Positions 27,429 through 61,745 of a stretch of 64,000 nt of DNA are shown here, piece by piece. Both the position numbers and the translations under genes were made by a program. This DNA is from an uncultured Chloroflexia bacterium (GTDB taxonomy: Bacteria > Chloroflexota > Chloroflexia > Thermomicrobiales > UBA6265). Position 1 is the stretch's first letter. The number at the start of each line of letters is the position of its first letter. The DNA is taken from positions 90,304 to 154,303 of the forward strand of contig CAVRUC010000010.1 in assembly GCA_963724295.1 (NCBI GenBank), given 5' to 3'. The notes below the pieces were generated by a model. That model saw only the letters and a list, made by a program, of their open reading frames with translations. It was not told where the DNA came from and did no database searches.

Positions 27429-27540
27429 AGTCGGCAAGTCGTAAAGTCGGTAAGTGAATTGGTCGAGTGAGGCATACGACCTCCGCGGAATTCGCTGCCC
27501 TACTTTCTCCTTACCGACTTCCGACTGACCGACTTCGTAC
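27429..27540. repeat. forward AGTCGGNA x3.5 (27429-27456) and inverted NNACCGAC x4 (27511-27540) octamer arrays
   Basis: Read directly from the sequence. The arrays lie between the hypothetical gene and the rsmD start. Confidence 0.9.
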
Positions 27541-27591
27541 AAACACGAACCCGGCCTCGAGGGCCGGGCACGTGCGGGAAGGGGAAGGGGT
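27539..27591 (-). terminator. conserved 53-nt cassette; on the minus strand CCCGGCC-CTCGA-GGCCGGG hairpin followed by TTCGTGTTTGT
   Basis: 51/53 nt identical to 59892-59944. It lies about 70 nt downstream of the stop of the minus-strand gene 27662..28096. Confidence 0.6.
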
Positions 27592-27661
27592 GGAACGCTC
27601 TCGCGTTCCCTGGGTTCTGGGAGGGCGTCGAGGTGTAGGGGACGACGCTCTCTGCTGGTTT

Positions 27662-28096
27662 TTACGTCGCCGCCCGCGGTCCGGATTCATGCCCTGGCCC
27701 GTTGGAGCCCGGTGCATTCGGATCGGCAATTGCCGCACCGGTAGCCGCGTCGATCCATTTGCGCCGTAATCCATCGTAGTAATAGGGCCGGTCGAGGGGA
27801 GGAGCCGGCGTGGATGCGACCGGCCGGTCACGCCGGCTGAGGCCGATGCGCCGCGCGCCGGGCATGTACCAGACGCTGAACTCCGCATCCACGAGCTCGT
27901 CGAGAACTCGGCCGACCAGCCACCAGCCATCGCGACCAACGCGGGGCGGCAAGGTGATCCCCGTTACCCGCTCCGCAATCGCCGCCGTTGTCAGCCTGGT
28001 GTGGGTTGGATCGGCGCGATGGCGGGCACGCCGCGCCGCGACGGCCTTGACGACCGCGATGGCGCTCTCCTCGATCGTCGGATAGGGATCGCTCAT
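27662..28096 (-). CDS. hypothetical protein
   Basis: 144-aa ORF with protein-like composition, bracketed by repeat loci. No recognisable motif. Confidence 0.45.
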   Translation of the reverse strand: MSDPYPTIEESAIAVVKAVAARRARHRADPTHTRLTTAAIAERVTGITLPPRVGRDGWWLVGRVLDELVDAEFSVWYMPGARRIGLSRRDRPVASTPAPPLDRPYYYDGLRRKWIDAATGAAIADPNAPGSNGPGHESGPRAAT

Positions 28097-28230
28097 GACT
28101 GGGACCTCCCGGCGGCCACATCACGGCCACCATGCTTGACGGCCCCTGCCGGTCAGCACTCCGGCGCTCCGGGACAGATTAGATCATATGTTCTATTTCC
28201 TGAGAGGTCAATCCCTGGGACGGGATGACG

Positions 28231-28343
28231 GGGTCGCAGGGTCGCAGGGTCGCGGGGTGACAGGGAGAACGATCCCCCGCCACCCTGCCACCACGAGCGG
28301 AGCGAGTAACGACCCCGCCACCCTCGTCTGACTTCCGACTCAG
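28231..28343. repeat. mosaic repeat locus: GGGTCGCR x4, 32-nt module GCCACCCTGCCACCACGAGCGGAGCGAGTAAC, GCCACCCTCGTCT, TCCGACT units
   Basis: Read directly from the sequence. The module at 28279-28310 is identical to the reverse complement of 50410-50441, and 29 nt of it recur at 57671-57699. Confidence 0.9.
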
Positions 28344-32119: not shown

Positions 32120-32176
32120 GGGCGACGCAGGCGTCGCCCCTACTCGCCGTCTGGCCGTCTCGCCGTCTTGCCGTCT
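32120..32176. repeat. REP-like palindrome GGGCGACGCAGGCGTCGCCCCTAC followed by (NGCCGTCT) x4 octamer array
   Basis: Read directly from the sequence. The array ends 3 nt from the recG stop codon. Confidence 0.9.
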
Positions 32177-32179
32177 CGT

Positions 32180-37415: not shown

Positions 37416-37493
37416 AGTCGGTAAGTCGGTAAGAACGAATATAGTCCGATACCCGATGGCCTACGTCCGACTTCCGACCCCCGACCTCCGACT
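37416..37493. repeat. forward AGTCGGTA x2 (37416-37431) and inverted TCCGACY x4 (37465-37493) arrays between convergent genes
   Basis: Read directly from the sequence. The arrays fill nearly the whole 91-nt gap between stop codons at 37408 and 37500. Confidence 0.9.
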
Positions 37494-37499
37494 CCAACC

Positions 37500-37898
37500 T
37501 CACGCCCAGGGATCGTCGCCCTCCGGCAACCGCCCGCCGAAGCGCCCTGATTCACCACGATCGGCCTCGGCCAGGCCGACGAGGGTGTCGAGGAACGGTT
37601 CCAGACCGGTATCCGGCTGGTGGAACCGGAAGCGGCCGAGCTCGTAGAGCACGCGTTGGTCGGGAAGGAACTCCTCACCCTGTCCCGCCAGTCGTTGCAA
37701 GTCGAGCAGCCGGGGGTCGTCGGCGGGAAGCGTCAACACATGAGCGGCAAGCTCCTCGAGCGCGGCCGCGGTGCGGAGATTCCGCTCATCGCGGTCGTAC
37801 TCTTCCGCCTTGCGCCGGCGCCAGGCAGCGGTCGAGCGGCAGAACTCCGCCAGCGAGAGCTGGAACCGGGACGGACCCGAGTCCATGCTACGTGTCAT
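37500..37898 (-). CDS. hypothetical protein (132 aa)
   Basis: Start is placed at MTRSMDSG. Composition is protein-like. It overlaps the upstream small gene by 11 nt. No motif recognised. Confidence 0.45.
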   Translation of the reverse strand: MTRSMDSGPSRFQLSLAEFCRSTAAWRRRKAEEYDRDERNLRTAAALEELAAHVLTLPADDPRLLDLQRLAGQGEEFLPDQRVLYELGRFRFHQPDTGLEPFLDTLVGLAEADRGESGRFGGRLPEGDDPWA

Positions 37899-41835: not shown

Positions 41836-41989
41836 TGGCCTTCACCTCCCCGGCCACAACCGGGGCGACGGACTATGCGGCGAAGCGATGACCGGAAGGG
41901 GGCATCCGGGATCCTCGCGCGCGGAGTTGGGACGGTGCTGTCGGGTGCCACCGAGTGTAGCAGCAGCTTGTACGTACGTCTATGGTTGG

Positions 41990-42037
41990 AGTCGGTAAGT
42001 CGGTGAGTCGGTGAGTCGGTGAGTCGGTAAGTCGGAT
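41990..42037. repeat. (AGTCGGTR) x6 perfect-register octamer array
   Basis: Read directly from the sequence. It is intergenic, between the TPR gene stop and the downstream gene start. Confidence 0.95.
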
Positions 42038-47680: not shown

Positions 47681-47687
47681 CGCGCGA

Positions 47688-47719
47688 AGTCGGTAAGTCG
47701 GTCAGTCGGTAAGTCGGCA
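47688..47719. repeat. (AGTCGGNN) x4 octamer array starting 8 nt after the proline dehydrogenase stop
   Basis: Read directly from the sequence. Confidence 0.95.
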
Positions 47720-47780
47720 AGGAAGAGCGCAGATGAGGGGTCGAGAAGAACTCGCGTCCAATCCCCCTCTTCCCCCGGGA

Positions 47781-47860: not shown

Positions 47861-50358
<2,498 letters not shown>

Positions 50359-50376
50359 TTGCTCCCTGCGGTCGCG

Positions 50377-50506
50377 GTGGTTGTTCGCTGCGCTCACGGT
50401 GACAGGGTGGTTACTCGCTCCGCTCGTGGTGGCAGGGTGGCAAGGTATTGGGTCACGGTTCTCCCTGCCACCCTGCCACCCTGCCACCCTGCCACCCTGC
50501 CACCCT
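50377..50506. repeat. mosaic repeat locus: 30-nt tandem units x2.3, inverted copy of the 32-nt module, then (CCCTGCCA) x5
   Basis: Read directly from the sequence. GGTGGCAGGGTGGCA (50429-50443) is complementary to TGCCACCCTGCCACC (50466-50480), giving a long hairpin after guaB. Confidence 0.9.
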
Positions 50507-51383: not shown

Positions 51384-52280
51384 CTATGCGCGTACGGGGC
51401 TGGACCGACCGATCACTTCGTCAAGCAACAGATTGAGGCTGGCCCGGTCGACAACTCCGGAGATGTAGTGATCGATCCCCATGCCAGCGAGCTGCTCCAG
51501 GAACGCGGGCAGCGCTTCCGGTAGCATCGCCATCGGGTGAGACTCTCGCAGGGCTGCCGGACCGAGCACCGTCTTCTCGATGGCTTCGTACGAACGTCCT
51601 TCCGCGTCGCAGTGCGCGCGCAGGACATCGAGCTTGTGCTGAAGCAGCGCGATCCCCTCGTCACCCGGCCTGGCGAAGAGGTTGCACGCGTCGGCATAGC
51701 GGGCCACGAGGCGGAGCGTCTTCTGCTCACCAGAACCGCCGACCATGATGCGCGGATGCGGCCTGGAAATCGGCATCGGCTGACAGAGCGTCTCCGCAAG
51801 CCGGTAGTGCTTGCCAGCAAATGCGCCGGCTTCACCGGACCACATCTGGCTAGCGATCTGTAACGTCTCCTCCAGGCGCTCGAAGCGCTCGCCGACGGGC
51901 GGGAACGCCACACCGAGGGCAAGATGTTCGCGTTCGTACCAGCCAGCGCCAATCCCGAGCCAGGCCCGGCCACCGGAGAGCACGTCGAGCGTTGTTACCG
52001 TCTTGACCAGGACTCCGGGATGGCGATACGTCACGCCCGTGACCAGTGTGCCGAGCGAGATGCGCTCGCTGATACCGGCGGCGAAGGCCAGTGCCGAGTA
52101 CCCCTCGAGCATCGGCTCATCGGCTTCCCCGATCGACGGAATCTGGAAGAAGTGATCCATCACCCACAACGAATCCAGCCCGCCCTGGTCGGCGTCGCGG
52201 ACCATTCCCGCAAACTCGGACGCGATGGCGGCGTCCCCTCCTGGTGTGACAAAACGCGGAATGGTTATGCCAAACTTCAT
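51384..52280 (-). CDS. LLM-class (luciferase-like) flavin/F420-dependent oxidoreductase
   Basis: MKFGITIP start, DSLWVMDHF, and overall luciferase-like monooxygenase pattern. Confidence 0.85.
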   Translation of the reverse strand: MKFGITIPRFVTPGGDAAIASEFAGMVRDADQGGLDSLWVMDHFFQIPSIGEADEPMLEGYSALAFAAGISERISLGTLVTGVTYRHPGVLVKTVTTLDVLSGGRAWLGIGAGWYEREHLALGVAFPPVGERFERLEETLQIASQMWSGEAGAFAGKHYRLAETLCQPMPISRPHPRIMVGGSGEQKTLRLVARYADACNLFARPGDEGIALLQHKLDVLRAHCDAEGRSYEAIEKTVLGPAALRESHPMAMLPEALPAFLEQLAGMGIDHYISGVVDRASLNLLLDEVIGRSSPVRA

Positions 52281-52315
52281 CGAGACTCGTTCCTCTCCGT
52301 AGCACACCCCGGACC

Positions 52316-52378
52316 GTCAACAATTGTTGACTTGTCGTACGATAGACGCGGCGTGCGGATTTGTCAACGATTGTTGAC
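52316..52378. promoter_or_regulatory. two 16-bp palindromic operator candidates GTCAACAATTGTTGAC (52316-52331) and GTCAACGATTGTTGAC (52363-52378)
   Basis: Read directly from the sequence. Both sit in the divergent region between the LLM oxidoreductase and the TetR gene. Confidence 0.6.
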
Positions 52379-52407
52379 TAACGGTGTTTCAAGGTCGGAG
52401 ATTCGGG

Positions 52408-53007
52408 GTGAATGGGCACGACTGCAGCCAGGCAACCGAAGGAGCCTGTCCTCCGCCACGCGGGCGTAACGCAGCCGCCACCCGGCAGGCGATTCTCGAT
52501 TCGGCGCGCTGGTGCTTCTCCCATGACGGCTACGACCAGGTCGGCGTACGCGACATCGCGGCGCGAGCAGGCGCAGATCCCGCGCTCGTCAATCGGTACT
52601 TCGGGTCCAAAGAAGCGCTCTTCGCCGAAGCGGTCAGCGCCAAGTTCGATCTGAGCGAGCTTTTCGCCGGAGATCGCGCGACACTCGGCGGGCGTCTGGC
52701 GAGCTACGTCTTGCAGAAGAAGACGTCGTCCAATGGCTATGATCCGCTCATCGCGCTGCTGCGCTCGTCGTCAAGCGAGGTGGCCGGCGGCATGCTGCGC
52801 GATGCGCTCGTTGACAGGTTCGTGCGGCCGCTGGCAGCCCGCCTGGATGGCCCTGACGCGATGCCGCGAGCCGAGCTTGTGGGGTCGATCCTGCTCGGAT
52901 TACTGGTCTACCGCACGATTGTCGGTGGCACCATGACGCAGAGTAACGAGCGGTTGATGGCATCGGTCACCCGGACACTGCAGACGCTGATCGATGGCGC
53001 TGCATAG
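52408..53007 (+). CDS. TetR/AcrR family transcriptional regulator
   Basis: HTH region TRQAILDSARWCFSHDGYDQVGVRDIAARAGADPALVNRYFGSKEALF. GTG start at 52408 follows a GGAG; the alternative start is 52384. Confidence 0.85.
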   Translation: MNGHDCSQATEGACPPPRGRNAAATRQAILDSARWCFSHDGYDQVGVRDIAARAGADPALVNRYFGSKEALFAEAVSAKFDLSELFAGDRATLGGRLASYVLQKKTSSNGYDPLIALLRSSSSEVAGGMLRDALVDRFVRPLAARLDGPDAMPRAELVGSILLGLLVYRTIVGGTMTQSNERLMASVTRTLQTLIDGAA

Positions 53008-57646: not shown

Positions 57647-57716
57647 GGTGACGGGGTCATCGTTCTCCCTGCCACCCTGCCACCACGAGCGGAGCGAGTC
57701 ATCACCCATCACCCAA
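57647..57716. repeat. mosaic repeat locus: GGGTGAC.., 29 nt of the GCCACCCTGCCACCACGAGCGGAGCGAGT module, then CATCACC x2
   Basis: Read directly from the sequence. It fills the gap between convergent stops at 57646 and 57709. Confidence 0.9.
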
Positions 57717-59688
57717 CGTGAATTGCCGGCCGGGTCTTGGGGTTGGGCTCGGTCTGACGCAGGATCTCGCGGGTCACGGGAGCGATGTCTCCCTCGCCGA
57801 AGATGACGAAGCGGGCCAGGTACTTCAGCGGGTTCCCCTCGGTCCAGCCGAAGTAGGCGTGCGGTTTCTTCCCCGTCCGGTCCCGGATGGCCAGCAGCGT
57901 AGCCGCCAGCCCGTTGGGGACGGACGCGCTCTCGACCTGGAGCACCCGGAACCCCGAAATCTCTTCCCCACTTACCTTGACGTTCGAGGCGAAGTCCGAG
58001 GCATCTTTCACCGTCACCTCGAGGAAGAGCACGGAATCGCCTGCCGGGATGTGGCTCGCCTCGCGCTCCTCCCGCTCCTTGACCAGGTACTCCCGGGTAT
58101 TTCGCTCGTCCGGGTGATTGGCGATCAAACGCAAGGAGCCGCGCTTGGCCGCCTCCCGGATGAATCGATCGGCGGTCTCGTCCAACTCGACCTCGGTGGC
58201 GCGTAGCTCCGTCGCGCGCACGACCCGGGAGACCAGCGAGATGATGACGATCATGGCAAAGAAGATCGCCGCCATCTTCAGACCACTTGGATTCTCGAAG
58301 ATCGTGTTGAGAAACGCGTAGATGAAAATCACCATGAAGGCGCCGAACCAGATGATCGGTCCCCGCTCCTTCTTGCGCCATTCCGAGAGGAAAACCGCGA
58401 CCGAGGCCGAGGTAATCACCGCCAGGACGCCGGTCGCATACGGCCCGGCCTGGGCGTTGATATCGGCTTGAAAGAGGATCGTCACCGCGAAACAGAGGAC
58501 CGTGTAGAGGATGACCAGCGGTCGCGTGGCTCGCGTCCAATCGGGCGCCATGCCGTAGCGCGGGAGGTAGCGGGGCACGATGTTGAGCAGGCCGGCCATC
58601 GCCGAGGCGCCGGCAAACCAGAGGATCAGGATCGTCGAGGCATCGTAGAGCGTGCCGAAGACATCGCCGAGATATTCGTGCGCGAGAAAGGCCAGTGCGC
58701 GGCCATTCGCCTCGCCACCTTCTTCAAAGGCCTCATGCGGGATGAGCAGTGTCGAAACCAGACTGCTGGAGATGAGCATCACGCTCATGATCGAGGCGGC
58801 GACCGTGAGCAGCTTACCCGTGTTCCGGATGCGGCACTCCGGCCACCGCGGATCGTCAGTTGCGCAGCCCTTGACCAGCGGCATGACCACGACACCGGTT
58901 TCGAATCCGGATAGACCAAGCGCCAGGCGCGGAAACAGAAAAATCGCGGTCAGGGCCATAGCGACCGGACTGCTGTATTCGAGCTGAAGTGAAGCGCGCC
59001 AGTTGCCGAGAAGTTCTGGGTGCAACCCGATCTCCCAATAGGCACGAGCGAGCACCACGACGTTGAGGGAGAGGTAGAGCGCCACGATGCCGACGGCCAG
59101 ACCGATGGCTTCCGAGAACCCGCGCAGGAAGAAGATACCGAGCAACAAGATCAGGCCGAGGGTGATCGGGATCTCATGACCCACGAGGAAGTGGCCGAAC
59201 GGGTTTTCGATGATATGAGCCGCGGCGTCAGAGGCGGAGATCGTGATCGTCACTACGAACGCGGTCAGCACGAAGCTGATCAGCACCAGAACCAGGATCT
59301 TGCCCTGCCACCAGGAGAGCAGCCGCTCCAGCATCGAGATCGATCCGTCGCCATGGGGGCTCTCCGCGGCGACGCGCCGGTACATGGGCAGCGCGCCGAG
59401 GAGGGTCACGAGCACCAGGACCAGGGTCGCTATCGGGGCCAGGGATGCGGCGGCGAGTGCGGCGATGCCCGGCTGGTACCCGAGAGTCGAGAAGTAATCG
59501 ACGCCGGTCAAGCACATCACCTGCCACCAGGAGTGCTTGTGTGCTCCCTGCTCCGATGTGTGCGGACCCTCCAGATCTTCGGGTTGACCGTGGAGCATCC
59601 ACCGGCGCACGCCACCGTTTGCTGGGATCGACTTTTGTGGTCCGACCCGGACGGTTGTACTGGCGTCGACTGACACGCTGTCCCCCAC
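57709..59688 (-). CDS. APC-superfamily-like permease with C-terminal cytoplasmic domain
   Basis: About 12 hydrophobic segments (..CLTGVDYFSTLGYQPGIA..) followed by a soluble domain of about 190 aa. Start is uncertain. Confidence 0.7.
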   Translation of the reverse strand: MGDSVSVDASTTVRVGPQKSIPANGGVRRWMLHGQPEDLEGPHTSEQGAHKHSWWQVMCLTGVDYFSTLGYQPGIAALAAASLAPIATLVLVLVTLLGALPMYRRVAAESPHGDGSISMLERLLSWWQGKILVLVLISFVLTAFVVTITISASDAAAHIIENPFGHFLVGHEIPITLGLILLLGIFFLRGFSEAIGLAVGIVALYLSLNVVVLARAYWEIGLHPELLGNWRASLQLEYSSPVAMALTAIFLFPRLALGLSGFETGVVVMPLVKGCATDDPRWPECRIRNTGKLLTVAASIMSVMLISSSLVSTLLIPHEAFEEGGEANGRALAFLAHEYLGDVFGTLYDASTILILWFAGASAMAGLLNIVPRYLPRYGMAPDWTRATRPLVILYTVLCFAVTILFQADINAQAGPYATGVLAVITSASVAVFLSEWRKKERGPIIWFGAFMVIFIYAFLNTIFENPSGLKMAAIFFAMIVIISLVSRVVRATELRATEVELDETADRFIREAAKRGSLRLIANHPDERNTREYLVKEREEREASHIPAGDSVLFLEVTVKDASDFASNVKVSGEEISGFRVLQVESASVPNGLAATLLAIRDRTGKKPHAYFGWTEGNPLKYLARFVIFGEGDIAPVTREILRQTEPNPKTRPAIHVG

Positions 59689-59752: not shown

Positions 59753-59888
59753 GGTGATGGGTGATCGGGCTATTGGCTGTTGGCTGTTGGCTGTTGGCTG
59801 TTGGCTCACGACCGATGACTCACAATTCACGACGAGCCGTCTTGCCATTTCGCCATCTACTTGCCGACTCACCGACTGACCGACTCAC
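59753..59888. repeat. GGTGATS x2, (TTGGCTG) x5 heptamer array (59773-59807), inverted NNACCGAC x3.5 (59861-59888)
   Basis: Read directly from the sequence. Confidence 0.9.
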
Positions 59889-59891
59889 GCC

Positions 59892-59944
59892 ACAAACACG
59901 AACCCGGCCTCTTGGGCCGGGCACGTGCGGGAAGGGGAAGGGGT
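59892..59944 (-). terminator. second copy of the conserved 53-nt hairpin/G-rich cassette
   Basis: ACAAACACGAACCCGGCCTCTTGGGCCGGGCACGTGCGGGAAGGGGAAGGGGT. On the minus strand the GC hairpin is followed by TTCGTGTTTGT. It lies 80 nt downstream of the stop of 60024..61745. Confidence 0.6.
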
Positions 59945-60023
59945 TTGGGTTCGAGAAGCGGTGGGTCTGGGGAGGACTCGCCGGCTTCTTGACCCTATCT
60001 ACGTCGCCTTCTCGAGATCGGAT

Positions 60024-61745
60024 TCACTTTCTCTCCCGCGCGGCGTCAGGTTCGCTGGTGCCATAGACCGTTTGCCTCCTCACGCTAACCAAATCGTCGG
60101 TCTCGCCTGAATTGATCCCCTGCCAGCCCAGCACCTGGCGCACGAACTCGAGACCCGCCTCGAACTCCGGCTGGACCACTTCGTCAGCTCCCCTCGCGGA
60201 GAGCCCGCTGACGTCCCCTGCGCCGGGAGCGCGGACGATGACATGGATGGCAGGGTTCAGCGCACGCGCGTTCCGGATCACCGCCTCAGTGGCCAGGAGG
60301 TCGGGGGTCGTGACCGCGACCGTACGCGCCGTTGGCACTCCCGCGCTCTCCAGCTCGGCGCGCGAGGCCGCATCTCCGTAGAGCGCGTCGATGCCCCGCT
60401 CGCGCAAGTCGCGCACGATCGCCGGATTGAGCTCGATGACGCTGTACGCCTGATCCCAGTGATCGAGCGCCGCGCCGATCTCGGCGCCCACCCGGCCAAA
60501 CCCGCAGATGACCACATGGTCACCAGCCGGCGCCACGGGCGGAGGAGGTCCGGCCGCCAGCCGCTCCTGCCGCTCCACACCAGGCAGGTGCTCGGCGATG
60601 CGGACAAGACGAGGCGAGATGGCCACCAGGATCGGCATGGCCAGAATCGAGCAGAGCGCGACCGAGAGGATCGTGCCGTACTCGCCGATGTCGATCAGTC
60701 CGTGCTCGAGCCCTGAGCCAGCCAGGACGAAGCTGAATTCACCCATCTGCGCCATGAAGACCGCCGCCAGCGTCGATGTCCGGTGATCGACACCCGCGGC
60801 CAGCAGCGCGCCTCCGGTGATCAGCAACTTGCCGGCGACGAGCACGAACGCGAACCCCAACACGAGCTGCCACTGGGCGATCAGCGCGAACGGGTCGATC
60901 AACATGCCCACGGCAACGAAGAACAGGGTGGCGAAGATATCCCGGATTGGGATGATGTCGGCCAGCACTTGCTCTTCGAAATCCGTCTCGGAGACGACGA
61001 TCCCGGCCAGGAATGCTCCCAGACCCAGCGACAACCCGGCCGCATGCGTCGCCAACGCGACACCGAGGGCGATGGCCACGATGGTGAGCATGAAGAGCTC
61101 TCGCGAGCCGGAACGCGCGACGATGCGAAGCAGCGGAGGCACGAGCCGGGTGCCGAGGAGAAACGCCCCGATCAGGACCACCGCGGAGATCAGCAGCGAC
61201 TCCGCAATGCCGAACCCCCCGCCGCGCTGGCCGGCGATGACCGGGAGGAGCGCGAGCATCGGCGCCAGGCTGAAATCCTGGACGATGCCGAGACCGAGCG
61301 CCACCCGGGCATGCGGGCTCTCCATCTCTCCCCGGCCCATGAGCGTCTTGAGCGCGACGATCGAGCTGGAGATGGCGAACGCGCCACCGAGCAGGAGCGC
61401 CGCACCCAATGTCCAGCCACCAGCTAACCCCGCCGCTGTCCCCAGGAGCACGGTCAGCGGGATCTGGAGTGCCCCACCCAGCAGCGCGGCGCGGCGGACC
61501 CGGATCACTTCGCTGAGGGAGAATTCGACGCCAAGCCCGAACATCAGCAGCGCGACGCCGAGATTCGCCAGCAGCTGCACTCGATCCACGTCCGCCACCA
61601 GACCAGGCGTATTCGGCCCCACGGCGAGGCCCGCGAGGATGTACCCGATCAACGCGGGTAGTCCCAGGCGCTGCGCGATAAGTCCGCCGATCGCCGCCGC
61701 GCCTAGCGCAAGCACGATGTCGACGATGAGGCCAACATCCTCCAT
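60024..61745 (-). CDS. CPA2 cation:proton antiporter (Kef-type) with C-terminal TrkA-N/RCK domain
   Basis: Na+/H+ exchanger-like TM domain plus Rossmann motif VVICGFGRVG. Confidence 0.85.
   Translation of the reverse strand: MEDVGLIVDIVLALGAAAIGGLIAQRLGLPALIGYILAGLAVGPNTPGLVADVDRVQLLANLGVALLMFGLGVEFSLSEVIRVRRAALLGGALQIPLTVLLGTAAGLAGGWTLGAALLLGGAFAISSSIVALKTLMGRGEMESPHARVALGLGIVQDFSLAPMLALLPVIAGQRGGGFGIAESLLISAVVLIGAFLLGTRLVPPLLRIVARSGSRELFMLTIVAIALGVALATHAAGLSLGLGAFLAGIVVSETDFEEQVLADIIPIRDIFATLFFVAVGMLIDPFALIAQWQLVLGFAFVLVAGKLLITGGALLAAGVDHRTSTLAAVFMAQMGEFSFVLAGSGLEHGLIDIGEYGTILSVALCSILAMPILVAISPRLVRIAEHLPGVERQERLAAGPPPPVAPAGDHVVICGFGRVGAEIGAALDHWDQAYSVIELNPAIVRDLRERGIDALYGDAASRAELESAGVPTARTVAVTTPDLLATEAVIRNARALNPAIHVIVRAPGAGDVSGLSARGADEVVQPEFEAGLEFVRQVLGWQGINSGETDDLVSVRRQTVYGTSEPDAARERK

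Follow-up and report, generated by a model that had tools for sequence, protein, structure and literature searches.

A previously undescribed family of predicted C-rich RNAs with an invariant, terminator-like 3' end in soil Chloroflexota

The window, by which we mean the whole 64-kb stretch of DNA that was analysed, contains two copies of a 53-nt block, ACAAACACGAACCCGGCCTC[NN]GGGCCGGGCACGTGCGGGAAGGGGAAGGGGT, at positions 27539-27591 and 59892-59944 of the + strand. As the preliminary description had reported, the two copies are 51/53 identical and both differing bases (GA vs TT) lie in the loop of a CCCGGCC/GGCCGGG hairpin; no match to the block was obtained in 100 shuffles. Each copy follows a gene of the minus strand. 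The gene upstream of copy B (60024..61745, minus strand) encodes a Na+/H+ exchanger with a TrkA_N domain (Pfam PF00999, 6e-59; PF02254, 6e-23). The gene upstream of copy A (27662..28096, minus strand) encodes a conserved 144-aa protein with no Pfam match, which shows a coding-type substitution pattern in an 8-locus alignment and is preceded by a predicted canonical sigma-70 promoter (TTGACC-17-TATGAT). Their stop codons are 71 nt (27662-27664) and 80 nt (60024-60026) away from the block, in agreement with the distance of 70-80 nt given earlier. The flanks of copies A and B are unrelated to each other, so the two copies are not part of a segmental duplication.

Alignment of relatives showed that the block is one end of a larger unit. 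Conservation runs away from the neighbouring ACCGAC repeats, through variable hairpins, up to CTACGTCG-N13-GGATTCA on the + strand, a motif that overlaps the stop codon of the upstream gene in both window copies. In minus-strand orientation, the whole element measures about 135-151 nt (27539-27689 in copy A, 59892-60026 in copy B) and its parts are ordered as TGAATCC-N13-CGACGTAGA, hairpin P3, hairpin P2 in some subtypes, ACCCCUUCCCCUUCCC, hairpin P1 and the tail UUCGUGUUU. The block itself had been placed exactly in the preliminary description, but the extent and make-up of the element had to be redrawn. Its remark that conservation goes beyond what a terminator needs was well founded.

In copy B, TGAATCC (60020..60026, minus strand, as all features of the element) provides with its TGA the stop codon of the antiporter gene, and is 96% identical in the family alignment. 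Exactly 13 nt past it lies CGACGTAGA (59998..60006), a candidate -10-like element of a non-sigma-70 promoter. The long imperfect hairpin P3, with loop UCCUCCCCAGA, occupies 59947..59995; it is present in the MFE and centroid folds (z = -3.36) and the covariance model aligns it with P3 of copy A. The CU-rich tract ACCCCUUCCCCUUCCC (59929..59944) is unpaired in the fold and invariant in the family, including copies outside the search pattern. Next comes the extended hairpin P1 (59897..59927), in which a 2x2 internal loop separates the outer helix CACG/CGUG from the inner helix CCCGGCC/GGCCGGG, the latter closed by a variable loop. The U-rich tail ends at 59892..59896; past the inner stem, the full tail reads UUCGUGUUUGU, and a terminator-like call was obtained for P1 plus this tail on the minus strand only. 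In copy A, TGAATCC is found at 27683..27689 and CGACGTAAA at 27661..27669, the TAA of the latter being the stop codon of the 144-aa gene. P3 (GAGAGCGUCG / CGACGCCCUC, loop UCCCCUACACCU) lies at 27621..27652 and P2 (GGAACGC / GCGUUCC) at 27592..27609. The invariant tract ACCCCUUCCCCUUCCC follows at 27576..27591, supported by the fold and the covariance model, and the element closes at 27539..27574 with P1 (27544-27574) and the U-rich tail (27539-27543), for which the terminator call, the fold and the model coincide. Copy A, which has P2, belongs to type A, and copy B, from which P2 is missing, to type B. When the covariance model was run over the whole window with filters off, exactly two full-length matches were obtained, both on the minus strand, at 27536-27691 (181 bits) and 59889-60028 (96.9 bits). 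Neither this search nor nhmmer detected further diverged copies in the 64-kb window.

The preliminary description had also considered the ACCGAC units next to the block as fused to it. About three 8-mers of the CCGACT type do precede each copy, as CCGACTCA x3 at 59864..59888 and CCGACTT x3 at 27514..27536. We do not include them in the element, because tandem arrays of the same type fill many cassette-free intergenic gaps of the window and many family members lack ACCGAC units. Within the window, 7-8-nt arrays without a cassette are found at 37416-37501, 41989-42035, 47687-47721, 32143-32178 and 50463-50506. The two arrays beside copies A and B are of this generic intergenic kind and lie outside the element.

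Beyond the window, an exact scan with 42 nt of the core over metagenome-assembled genomes (MAGs), one genome per species, returned 10 loci, mostly from Thermomicrobiales or Chloroflexota. Three of the carrier bins are labelled Actinomycetota, Acidobacteriota and Gemmatimonadales, labels that may reflect mis-binning. A 21-nt exact scan of metagenome contigs gave 96 stretches, about 65 of them true relatives and the remainder chance matches inside a coding gene. The scan of viral contigs for the core gave no match. From 32 P2-containing members we built a covariance model, R1. With it, 85 members, complete or partial, were recognised among the loci retrieved (designated by L numbers below). Altogether, soil MAGs and metagenome contigs, for the most part from Thermomicrobiales/Chloroflexota, yielded over 80 related copies. 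Outside the window there is also a third frequent subtype, type C, together with some less common ones. The element is multicopy: two copies are present in the 64-kb window, tandem copies in L092, and pairs flanking one gene in L074 and L021. Related MAGs carry the same subtype at the same gene junction although the flanking coding sequence has diverged. The preliminary description had considered that only the two window copies might exist, within a segmental duplication; with more than 80 copies elsewhere and unrelated flanks, this possibility is discarded. Rfam 15 gave no match over the whole window at the gathering threshold (6C, RF01066, and RsaE, RF01820, included), and at E <= 10 only chance-level matches to unrelated eukaryotic families were returned for copy A, copy B and L015. 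We found no description of a Thermomicrobiales or Chloroflexi RNA of such kind in the literature searched. The element family is a previously undescribed family of predicted RNAs, probably of a known functional kind, and the 53-nt blocks are its invariant 3' ends.

The architecture of an RNA family is apparent in the alignment. Of the cells in the minus-strand alignment, 94.8% pair, and compensatory changes affect 8 pairs, a number reached by 0 of 500 shuffles. P2 covaries at 5 of its 7 pairs, with 98.6% of cells paired, and P3 at 3 pairs, with a conserved A.C mismatch on the minus strand. The one or two variable, covarying hairpins display UCCCC loops. The small RNA mentioned as an option in the preliminary description is supported. 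A small ORF on either strand was rejected, given that subtype indels are not multiples of three (P2 is a 20-nt insertion) and that the base before TGAATCC can be A, G, T or C, which leaves no conserved start codon; a short peptide MNPxxxxRRR* is not conserved between copies A and B. Signatures of attC or REP sequences are not present.

Because any copy retrieved with our search patterns had to contain the 3' half of the stem and the tract beside it, the invariance of the core is in part a selection artefact. Three copies without the exact 21-mer were recovered by the model (L074:962-1107, L021:2-129 and L092:2885-3017), and they differ from the core solely at two bases, UG being replaced by CU or AA. 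Both bases form the 5' strand of the 2x2 internal loop predicted between CACG/CGUG and the inner 7-bp GC helix. UUCGUG lay outside every search pattern, yet it is 99.5% identical among the 32 P2-containing members. As unselected copies differ at the internal loop alone, we conclude that stem, CU-rich tract and UUCGUG are genuinely invariant. The same copies led us to discard the CACGTG palindrome (E-box) as a DNA site, as they vary at its two central bases and retain CACG...CGUG. The invariant sequence of the terminator stem is accounted for neither by a plain terminator nor by a base-pairing seed. As it falls outside the small RNA model, it suggests an additional, sequence-specific partner for the terminator hairpin.

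The preliminary description had taken the minus-strand sequence, a GC stem and then TTCGTGTTTGT, for a likely intrinsic terminator, and the consensus scan scored it as terminator-like in the two copies. In each, the call comprises eight stem pairs, 7 of them G-C, a loop of 5 nt and then TCGTGTTTGT, all on the minus strand. P1 with its U-rich tail is a predicted intrinsic terminator, with a weak U-tail that is broken by CGUG. The gene abutting the TGAATCC end is co-oriented with the element in 30 of 33 scorable loci according to a GC3-based gene call, which overlooked the type A 144-aa gene, also co-oriented and real. Upstream genes are diverse (Na+/H+ antiporter, ABC permease, small membrane protein, aldolase, GNAT and others), and their stop codon is often inside the motif, either as TGA of TGAATCC or as TAG of CGACGTAG. 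A stand-alone subtype, represented by L015/L087/L090 and L020/L078, has a divergent neighbour instead of a co-oriented upstream gene. In L015 and L078, the C-rich strand has a TTGACA-17-TATAGT sequence (11/12 to sigma-70) at 110-115 nt before the terminator, and the stand-alone lineages have kept identical promoter hexamers with diverged spacers. The L015-type layout is that of a putative free-standing small RNA gene of about 135 nt, this being also the distance between the predicted sigma-70 promoter and the terminator in L015 and L078. We chose the minus strand because the terminator call, the co-oriented upstream gene and the stand-alone promoters all agree, and we consider it likely that the element specifies an RNA module on this strand, with a terminator at its end.

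The bipartite motif at the 5' end is a candidate promoter. In the family alignment, identity is 84% for CGACGTAGA and 52% for the N13 spacer between it and TGAATCC. The spacing is 13 nt in 11 of the 12 first copies, and 16 nt in L007. Conservation sets in abruptly at TGAATCC, both in copies with the upstream stop codon inside the motif and in those where it is as much as 100 nt away. Moreover, main-type copies with a divergent upstream gene retain the motif without a sigma-70-like site; the divergent neighbour encodes an ABC substrate-binding protein in L067/L071 and a membrane protein in L021/L074b. A fixed spacing with a free spacer is probably the signature of an alternative (ECF-like) sigma promoter, which is what we suspect in this motif. 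A housekeeping promoter is not expected here, because a canonical sigma-70 promoter, TTGACC-17-TATGAT, exists in the same organism. ECF promoters combine a GAAC-like -35 element and a CGT-containing -10 element. As a lead, the motif resembles the ECF-type promoter of Bacillus subtilis sigma-W (TGAAAC-N16-CGTA). No instance of the motif without the element was found in the 570 kb scanned, so no regulon was seen, and no cognate sigma factor was identified for the motif. We give the motif a nearly even chance of being a promoter. In favour of a C-terminal coding constraint on N13, GAA-TCC...ACG-TAG reads in frame and L007 carries a +3 insertion; the idea was discarded, as the stops of upstream genes fall in three different frames or ahead of the motif.

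The predicted RNAs are 96-120 nt long, with 42% C and 25% G. They contain 3.8 UCCC motifs each, compared with 1.3 in shuffles, about three of them unpaired. Hairpin P3 contributes UCCC sites through its loop (UCCUCCCCAGA or UCCCCUACACCU) and through CCCUCCC on its 3' strand, and the invariant tract ACCCCUUCCCCUUCCC ahead of the terminator supplies others; both loops and the tract are unpaired in the predicted folds. The Shine-Dalgarno regions of the window are G-rich (GGGAGG, AAGGGG, GGGGAGGAC). The last of these, upstream of the 53035 gene, is the exact complement of the copy B loop, a complementarity that is generic for C-rich RNAs.

These features can be assembled into a model in which each copy would be a gene, or a 3'-end module, for a C-rich small RNA of about 100-120 nt encoded on the minus strand. 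As most copies begin at or after a stop codon of the same strand, the RNA would be made at least as the tail of the upstream mRNA. It is probably also made alone from TGAATCC-N13-CGACGTAGA, by an alternative (ECF-like) sigma factor. Its variable hairpins would expose UCCCC loops, followed by the unpaired ACCCCUUCCCCUUCCC, and the invariant extended GC hairpin with UUCGUGUUU would end transcription. The exposed CU-rich tracts would most likely pair with G-rich Shine-Dalgarno sequences (GGGAGG or AAGGGG), blocking translation of the target mRNAs. In this model we infer minus-strand transcription, the motif as promoter, the anti-Shine-Dalgarno mechanism and the targets from the DNA. The anti-Shine-Dalgarno mechanism is plausible, at somewhat less than even chances. 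For the family as a whole, we lean slightly towards sibling C-rich small RNAs (or 3'-end modules) that end in a terminator and probably pair with Shine-Dalgarno sites.

The design of the element matches that of LhrC and RoxS/RsaE, and this likeness together with the multiple copies is the reason to propose a family of sibling C-rich small RNAs. In Listeria monocytogenes, LhrC binds G-rich Shine-Dalgarno sequences and is induced by envelope stress (PMC4132741). The LhrC family (LhrC1-5, Rli22, Rli33-1) and the present one both consist of multicopy sibling RNAs of about 100 nt, G-poor and in part tandem, with redundant UCCC/CU-rich motifs in a hairpin loop and in the single strand before the terminator; the response of LhrC to envelope stress has a possible counterpart in the envelope-stress-type (ECF-like) promoter suspected here. 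However, there is no sequence or Rfam-level homology between them, and the present host is a Chloroflexota bacterium of 66% GC. Unlike LhrC, the present family has a variable, non-C-rich terminator loop and a sequence-invariant terminator stem and flank, and most of its copies abut a stop codon. RoxS/RsaE contain several C-rich regions, in loops and single strands, that pair with G-rich Shine-Dalgarno sequences (PMC5419742, PMC8216469, PMC6158497). RoxS of B. subtilis and RsaE of Staphylococcus aureus (RF01820) share with our elements the exposed C-rich regions and the intrinsic terminator at the end, a predicted one in our case. Their Rfam model, however, gives no match at E <= 10 either, the two groups are unlike in architecture and in the invariant 3' module, and RoxS/RsaE is single-copy whereas the present family is multicopy with subtypes.

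The 6C RNA of Actinobacteria (RF01066) and the CcsR or 'cuckoo' RNAs of Alphaproteobacteria also come from high-GC bacteria and, like the present family, have C-rich or CCUCC-type loops. Cuckoo RNAs are multicopy, often tandem, and co-transcribed with the upstream gene. In contrast to the present elements, which have no Rfam match to them, these RNAs adopt another fold, and the C-rich part of our family is mostly an unpaired tract by the terminator. A further parallel is MicL of Escherichia coli, a 3'UTR-derived, sigma-E-dependent RNA whose promoter is inside the end of the upstream coding sequence and which shares the terminator of the mRNA. In MicL-like RNAs and in the present family a promoter-like motif extends over the last part of the preceding coding sequence and the terminator is that of the mRNA, the promoter being a putative one in our case. 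Unlike the MicL type, the present family also has free-standing members with a predicted sigma-70 promoter.

Several observations are compatible with other readings. If the element were purely a cis-acting 3'-UTR module, its terminator and structured C-rich tail would stabilise the mRNA of the upstream gene or fold back on its own Shine-Dalgarno site, and no independent small RNA would be made. There is a precedent in the icaR 3'UTR of S. aureus, in which a UCCCCUG motif folds back on the Shine-Dalgarno site of its own mRNA. The position directly after a co-oriented gene in 30/33 scorable loci, the stop codons within the motif (TGA of TGAATCC, TAG of CGACGTAG) and the fact that P1 is the first terminator-like structure past the upstream genes of the window are all in line with this reading. 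However, some copies have no co-oriented upstream gene, with L067 and L021/L074b adjoining a divergent gene and the L015 type having its own predicted sigma-70 promoter; copies are in tandem in L092, and the 5' edge of conservation stays sharp at TGAATCC at any distance from the stop codon (0-100 nt). We hold a purely cis-acting module to be unlikely, while granting it some weight. Alternatively, the functional RNA could be the G-rich plus strand, with GGA/GGGG in loops and single strands, acting as a CsrA-type sponge or a G-quadruplex former and convergent with the neighbouring gene. The plus-strand MFE is indeed the lower one in 68/68 sequences, P3 forms continuous helices with G.U pairs on this strand (P3 mismatches flanked by Watson-Crick pairs are of the G.U type on plus in 69 cases vs 5), and every P3 loop contains GGA, as does the GGGAAGGGGAAGGGG tract. 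Yet once composition is controlled for, the plus strand does not fold better (z of -3.3 and -1.3 in the two copies, vs -3.4 and -4.9 for minus). Strand assignment by G.U counts alone was abandoned for the same reason, as P3 favoured plus and P2 favoured minus and the signal was gone after composition control. Further points against a plus-strand RNA are that the common P2 variant is G.U on the minus strand (10 sequences) and A.C on plus, that no promoter-like or terminator-like site was found on the plus strand, that the conserved promoters of stand-alone variants face the opposite way, and that the transcript would run antisense into the 3' end of the neighbouring gene. A G-quadruplex was rejected, as one G-tract is missing from L003 and type A has three clean tracts only. 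We regard a functional plus-strand RNA as improbable.

Dispersed, multicopy sequences with near-identical cores beside unrelated genes, and the flanking or tandem pairs, would also be expected of a non-autonomous mobile or repeat element (MITE-, REP- or Correia-like) that inserts at gene 3' ends and brings a terminator with it. Nevertheless, terminal inverted repeats are absent, the ends ACAAACACG... and ...GGATTCA sharing only a weak GAA(C/T)CC likeness, and there are no target-site duplications at the sharp boundaries. The window has only two copies in 64 kb and no degenerate ones, many MAGs share a subtype at a given gene junction despite divergence of the flanking coding sequence, the internal helices covary, and viral contigs gave no match. 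The MITE-like reading of the preliminary description is abandoned on these grounds, and mobility in any form appears quite improbable. In both window copies the promoter-like motif, the structured RNA and the terminator precede a co-oriented gene, an arrangement also expected of a transcription attenuator or riboswitch-like leader governing read-through. Type B loci with enough downstream sequence have a co-oriented ORF of about 2.0 kb (2001-2013 nt) after the terminator, the size of the 659-aa gene at 57709-59688, a match in length only; such an ORF is also found in L103, where the upstream gene encodes an ABC permease and not the antiporter. Against a leader, the downstream neighbour is convergent in many loci (S8 peptidase in L023, ABC permease in L070, a cupin-like gene in type C), downstream genes are diverse and have no common function, the most conserved part is the terminator with its flank and not an aptamer-like domain, and no Rfam riboswitch was matched. 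An attenuator is very improbable. As for an ordinary intrinsic terminator, with copies made similar by chance or by recent gene conversion, it would explain the terminator-like call, but hardly the lack of chance matches, the more than 80 copies in other genomes and the conserved parts 100 nt from the stem, and we give it almost no credence.

Returning to the minus-strand small RNA family, the partner suggested by the terminator hairpin invites a broader proposal. The 3' module, that is, the CU-rich tract and the 13-bp extended hairpin with its 2x2 internal loop, is conserved at every base in paralogous subtypes and in many different MAGs. It might be a platform for a dedicated RNA-binding protein or, as an anti-Shine-Dalgarno mimic, for the ribosome, within a phylum-specific post-transcriptional Chloroflexota regulon driven by an ECF sigma factor through TGAATCC-N13-CGACGTAGA. 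We consider this a rather unlikely, speculative extension of the model. If it held, it would represent a small RNA system with its own chaperone in Chloroflexota, a lineage for which we know of no small RNA chaperone.

Chloroflexota are a phylum abundant in soils, and to our knowledge almost nothing is known about RNA-based regulation in Chloroflexota/Thermomicrobiales. The family is recognisable from sequence alone, and covariance model R1 now exists. For annotation, caution is advisable, as the stop codons of several genes fall within a conserved non-coding motif. If its members are sibling small RNAs that target Shine-Dalgarno sites, they would give a first access to the post-transcriptional control of Chloroflexota, which may have a link with envelope stress. 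They would also yield annotated terminators and 3' ends for the annotation of MAGs, and would be an example of a terminator hairpin that is itself under selection at the sequence level.

The 21-mer GGCCGGGCACGTGCGGGAAGG, a core sequence with which metagenome contigs were scanned for relatives of the C-rich putative small RNAs, was found also within conserved coding sequence of unrelated high-GC organisms, in the context ...GT GGCCGGGCACGTGCGGGAAGG CGATGTCG... The loci concerned (L011, L012, L043, L045, L065, L066, L069, L082-L084, L096, L099 and L106) were rejected as family members, being chance matches inside such coding sequences. Three contigs with family elements carry labels outside Thermomicrobiales: L002 (CAVWXS010000020.1, Actinomycetota), L007 (CAWCZP010000021.1, Acidobacteriota) and L004 (JBJMPB010000674.1, Gemmatimonadales). 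Their elements and flanking genes are almost identical to those of Thermomicrobiales MAGs, and the off-lineage labels are likely due to mis-binning or mislabelling.

Some family members occur in pairs. At loci L074 (83-227 and 962-1107) and L021 (2-129 and 874-1019) the two copies lie on the same strand, on either side of an oppositely oriented membrane-protein gene, and at L092 (2507-2647 and 2885-3017) they are in tandem, with about 240 nt between them. In L015 (7020-7090), a member of the divergent stand-alone variant, a 9-bp inverted repeat, AGGATTTGA ... TCAAATCCT, lies on both sides of the predicted sigma-70 promoter, its place being taken in L020 and L078 by a hairpin, CAAAUCC-UAUA-GGAUUUG, at the predicted transcript start. 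Possible roles are those of an operator or of a stem-loop at the 5' end.

Most intergenic gaps of the window longer than about 150 nt contain tandem arrays with a 7-8-nt period (27429-27455, 28221-28265, 32143-32178, 37416-37501, 41989-42035, 47687-47721, 50354-50506, 57667-57715 and 59768-59806). Their units are GAGTCGGT, AAGTCGGT, GGGTCGCA, CTCGCCGT, CCCTGCCA and GGCTGTT, in both orientations relative to the flanking genes, and comparable arrays are present in intergenic DNA of related MAG loci. In the short intergenic region at 52308-52383, between the divergent genes at 51384-52307 (minus) and 52384-53007 (plus), there is a pair of 16-bp palindromes, GTCAACAATTGTTGAC and GTCAACGATTGTTGAC, nearly identical to each other and resembling operators of a dimeric repressor.

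The 144-aa gene upstream of one window copy of the family is preceded, at 28097-28215 (minus strand), by a predicted near-canonical promoter, TTGACC-17-TATGAT (28211-28183, minus), and a leader of about 80 nt, CCCGGAGCGCCGGAGUGCUGACCGGCAGGGGCCGUCAAGCAUGGUGGCCG...GGGAGG, between promoter and gene. No Rfam match was found for the leader, which over eight loci is far more conserved than the adjoining spacer. Possibly it is a cis-regulatory element, not described before, that controls the gene of this conserved protein.
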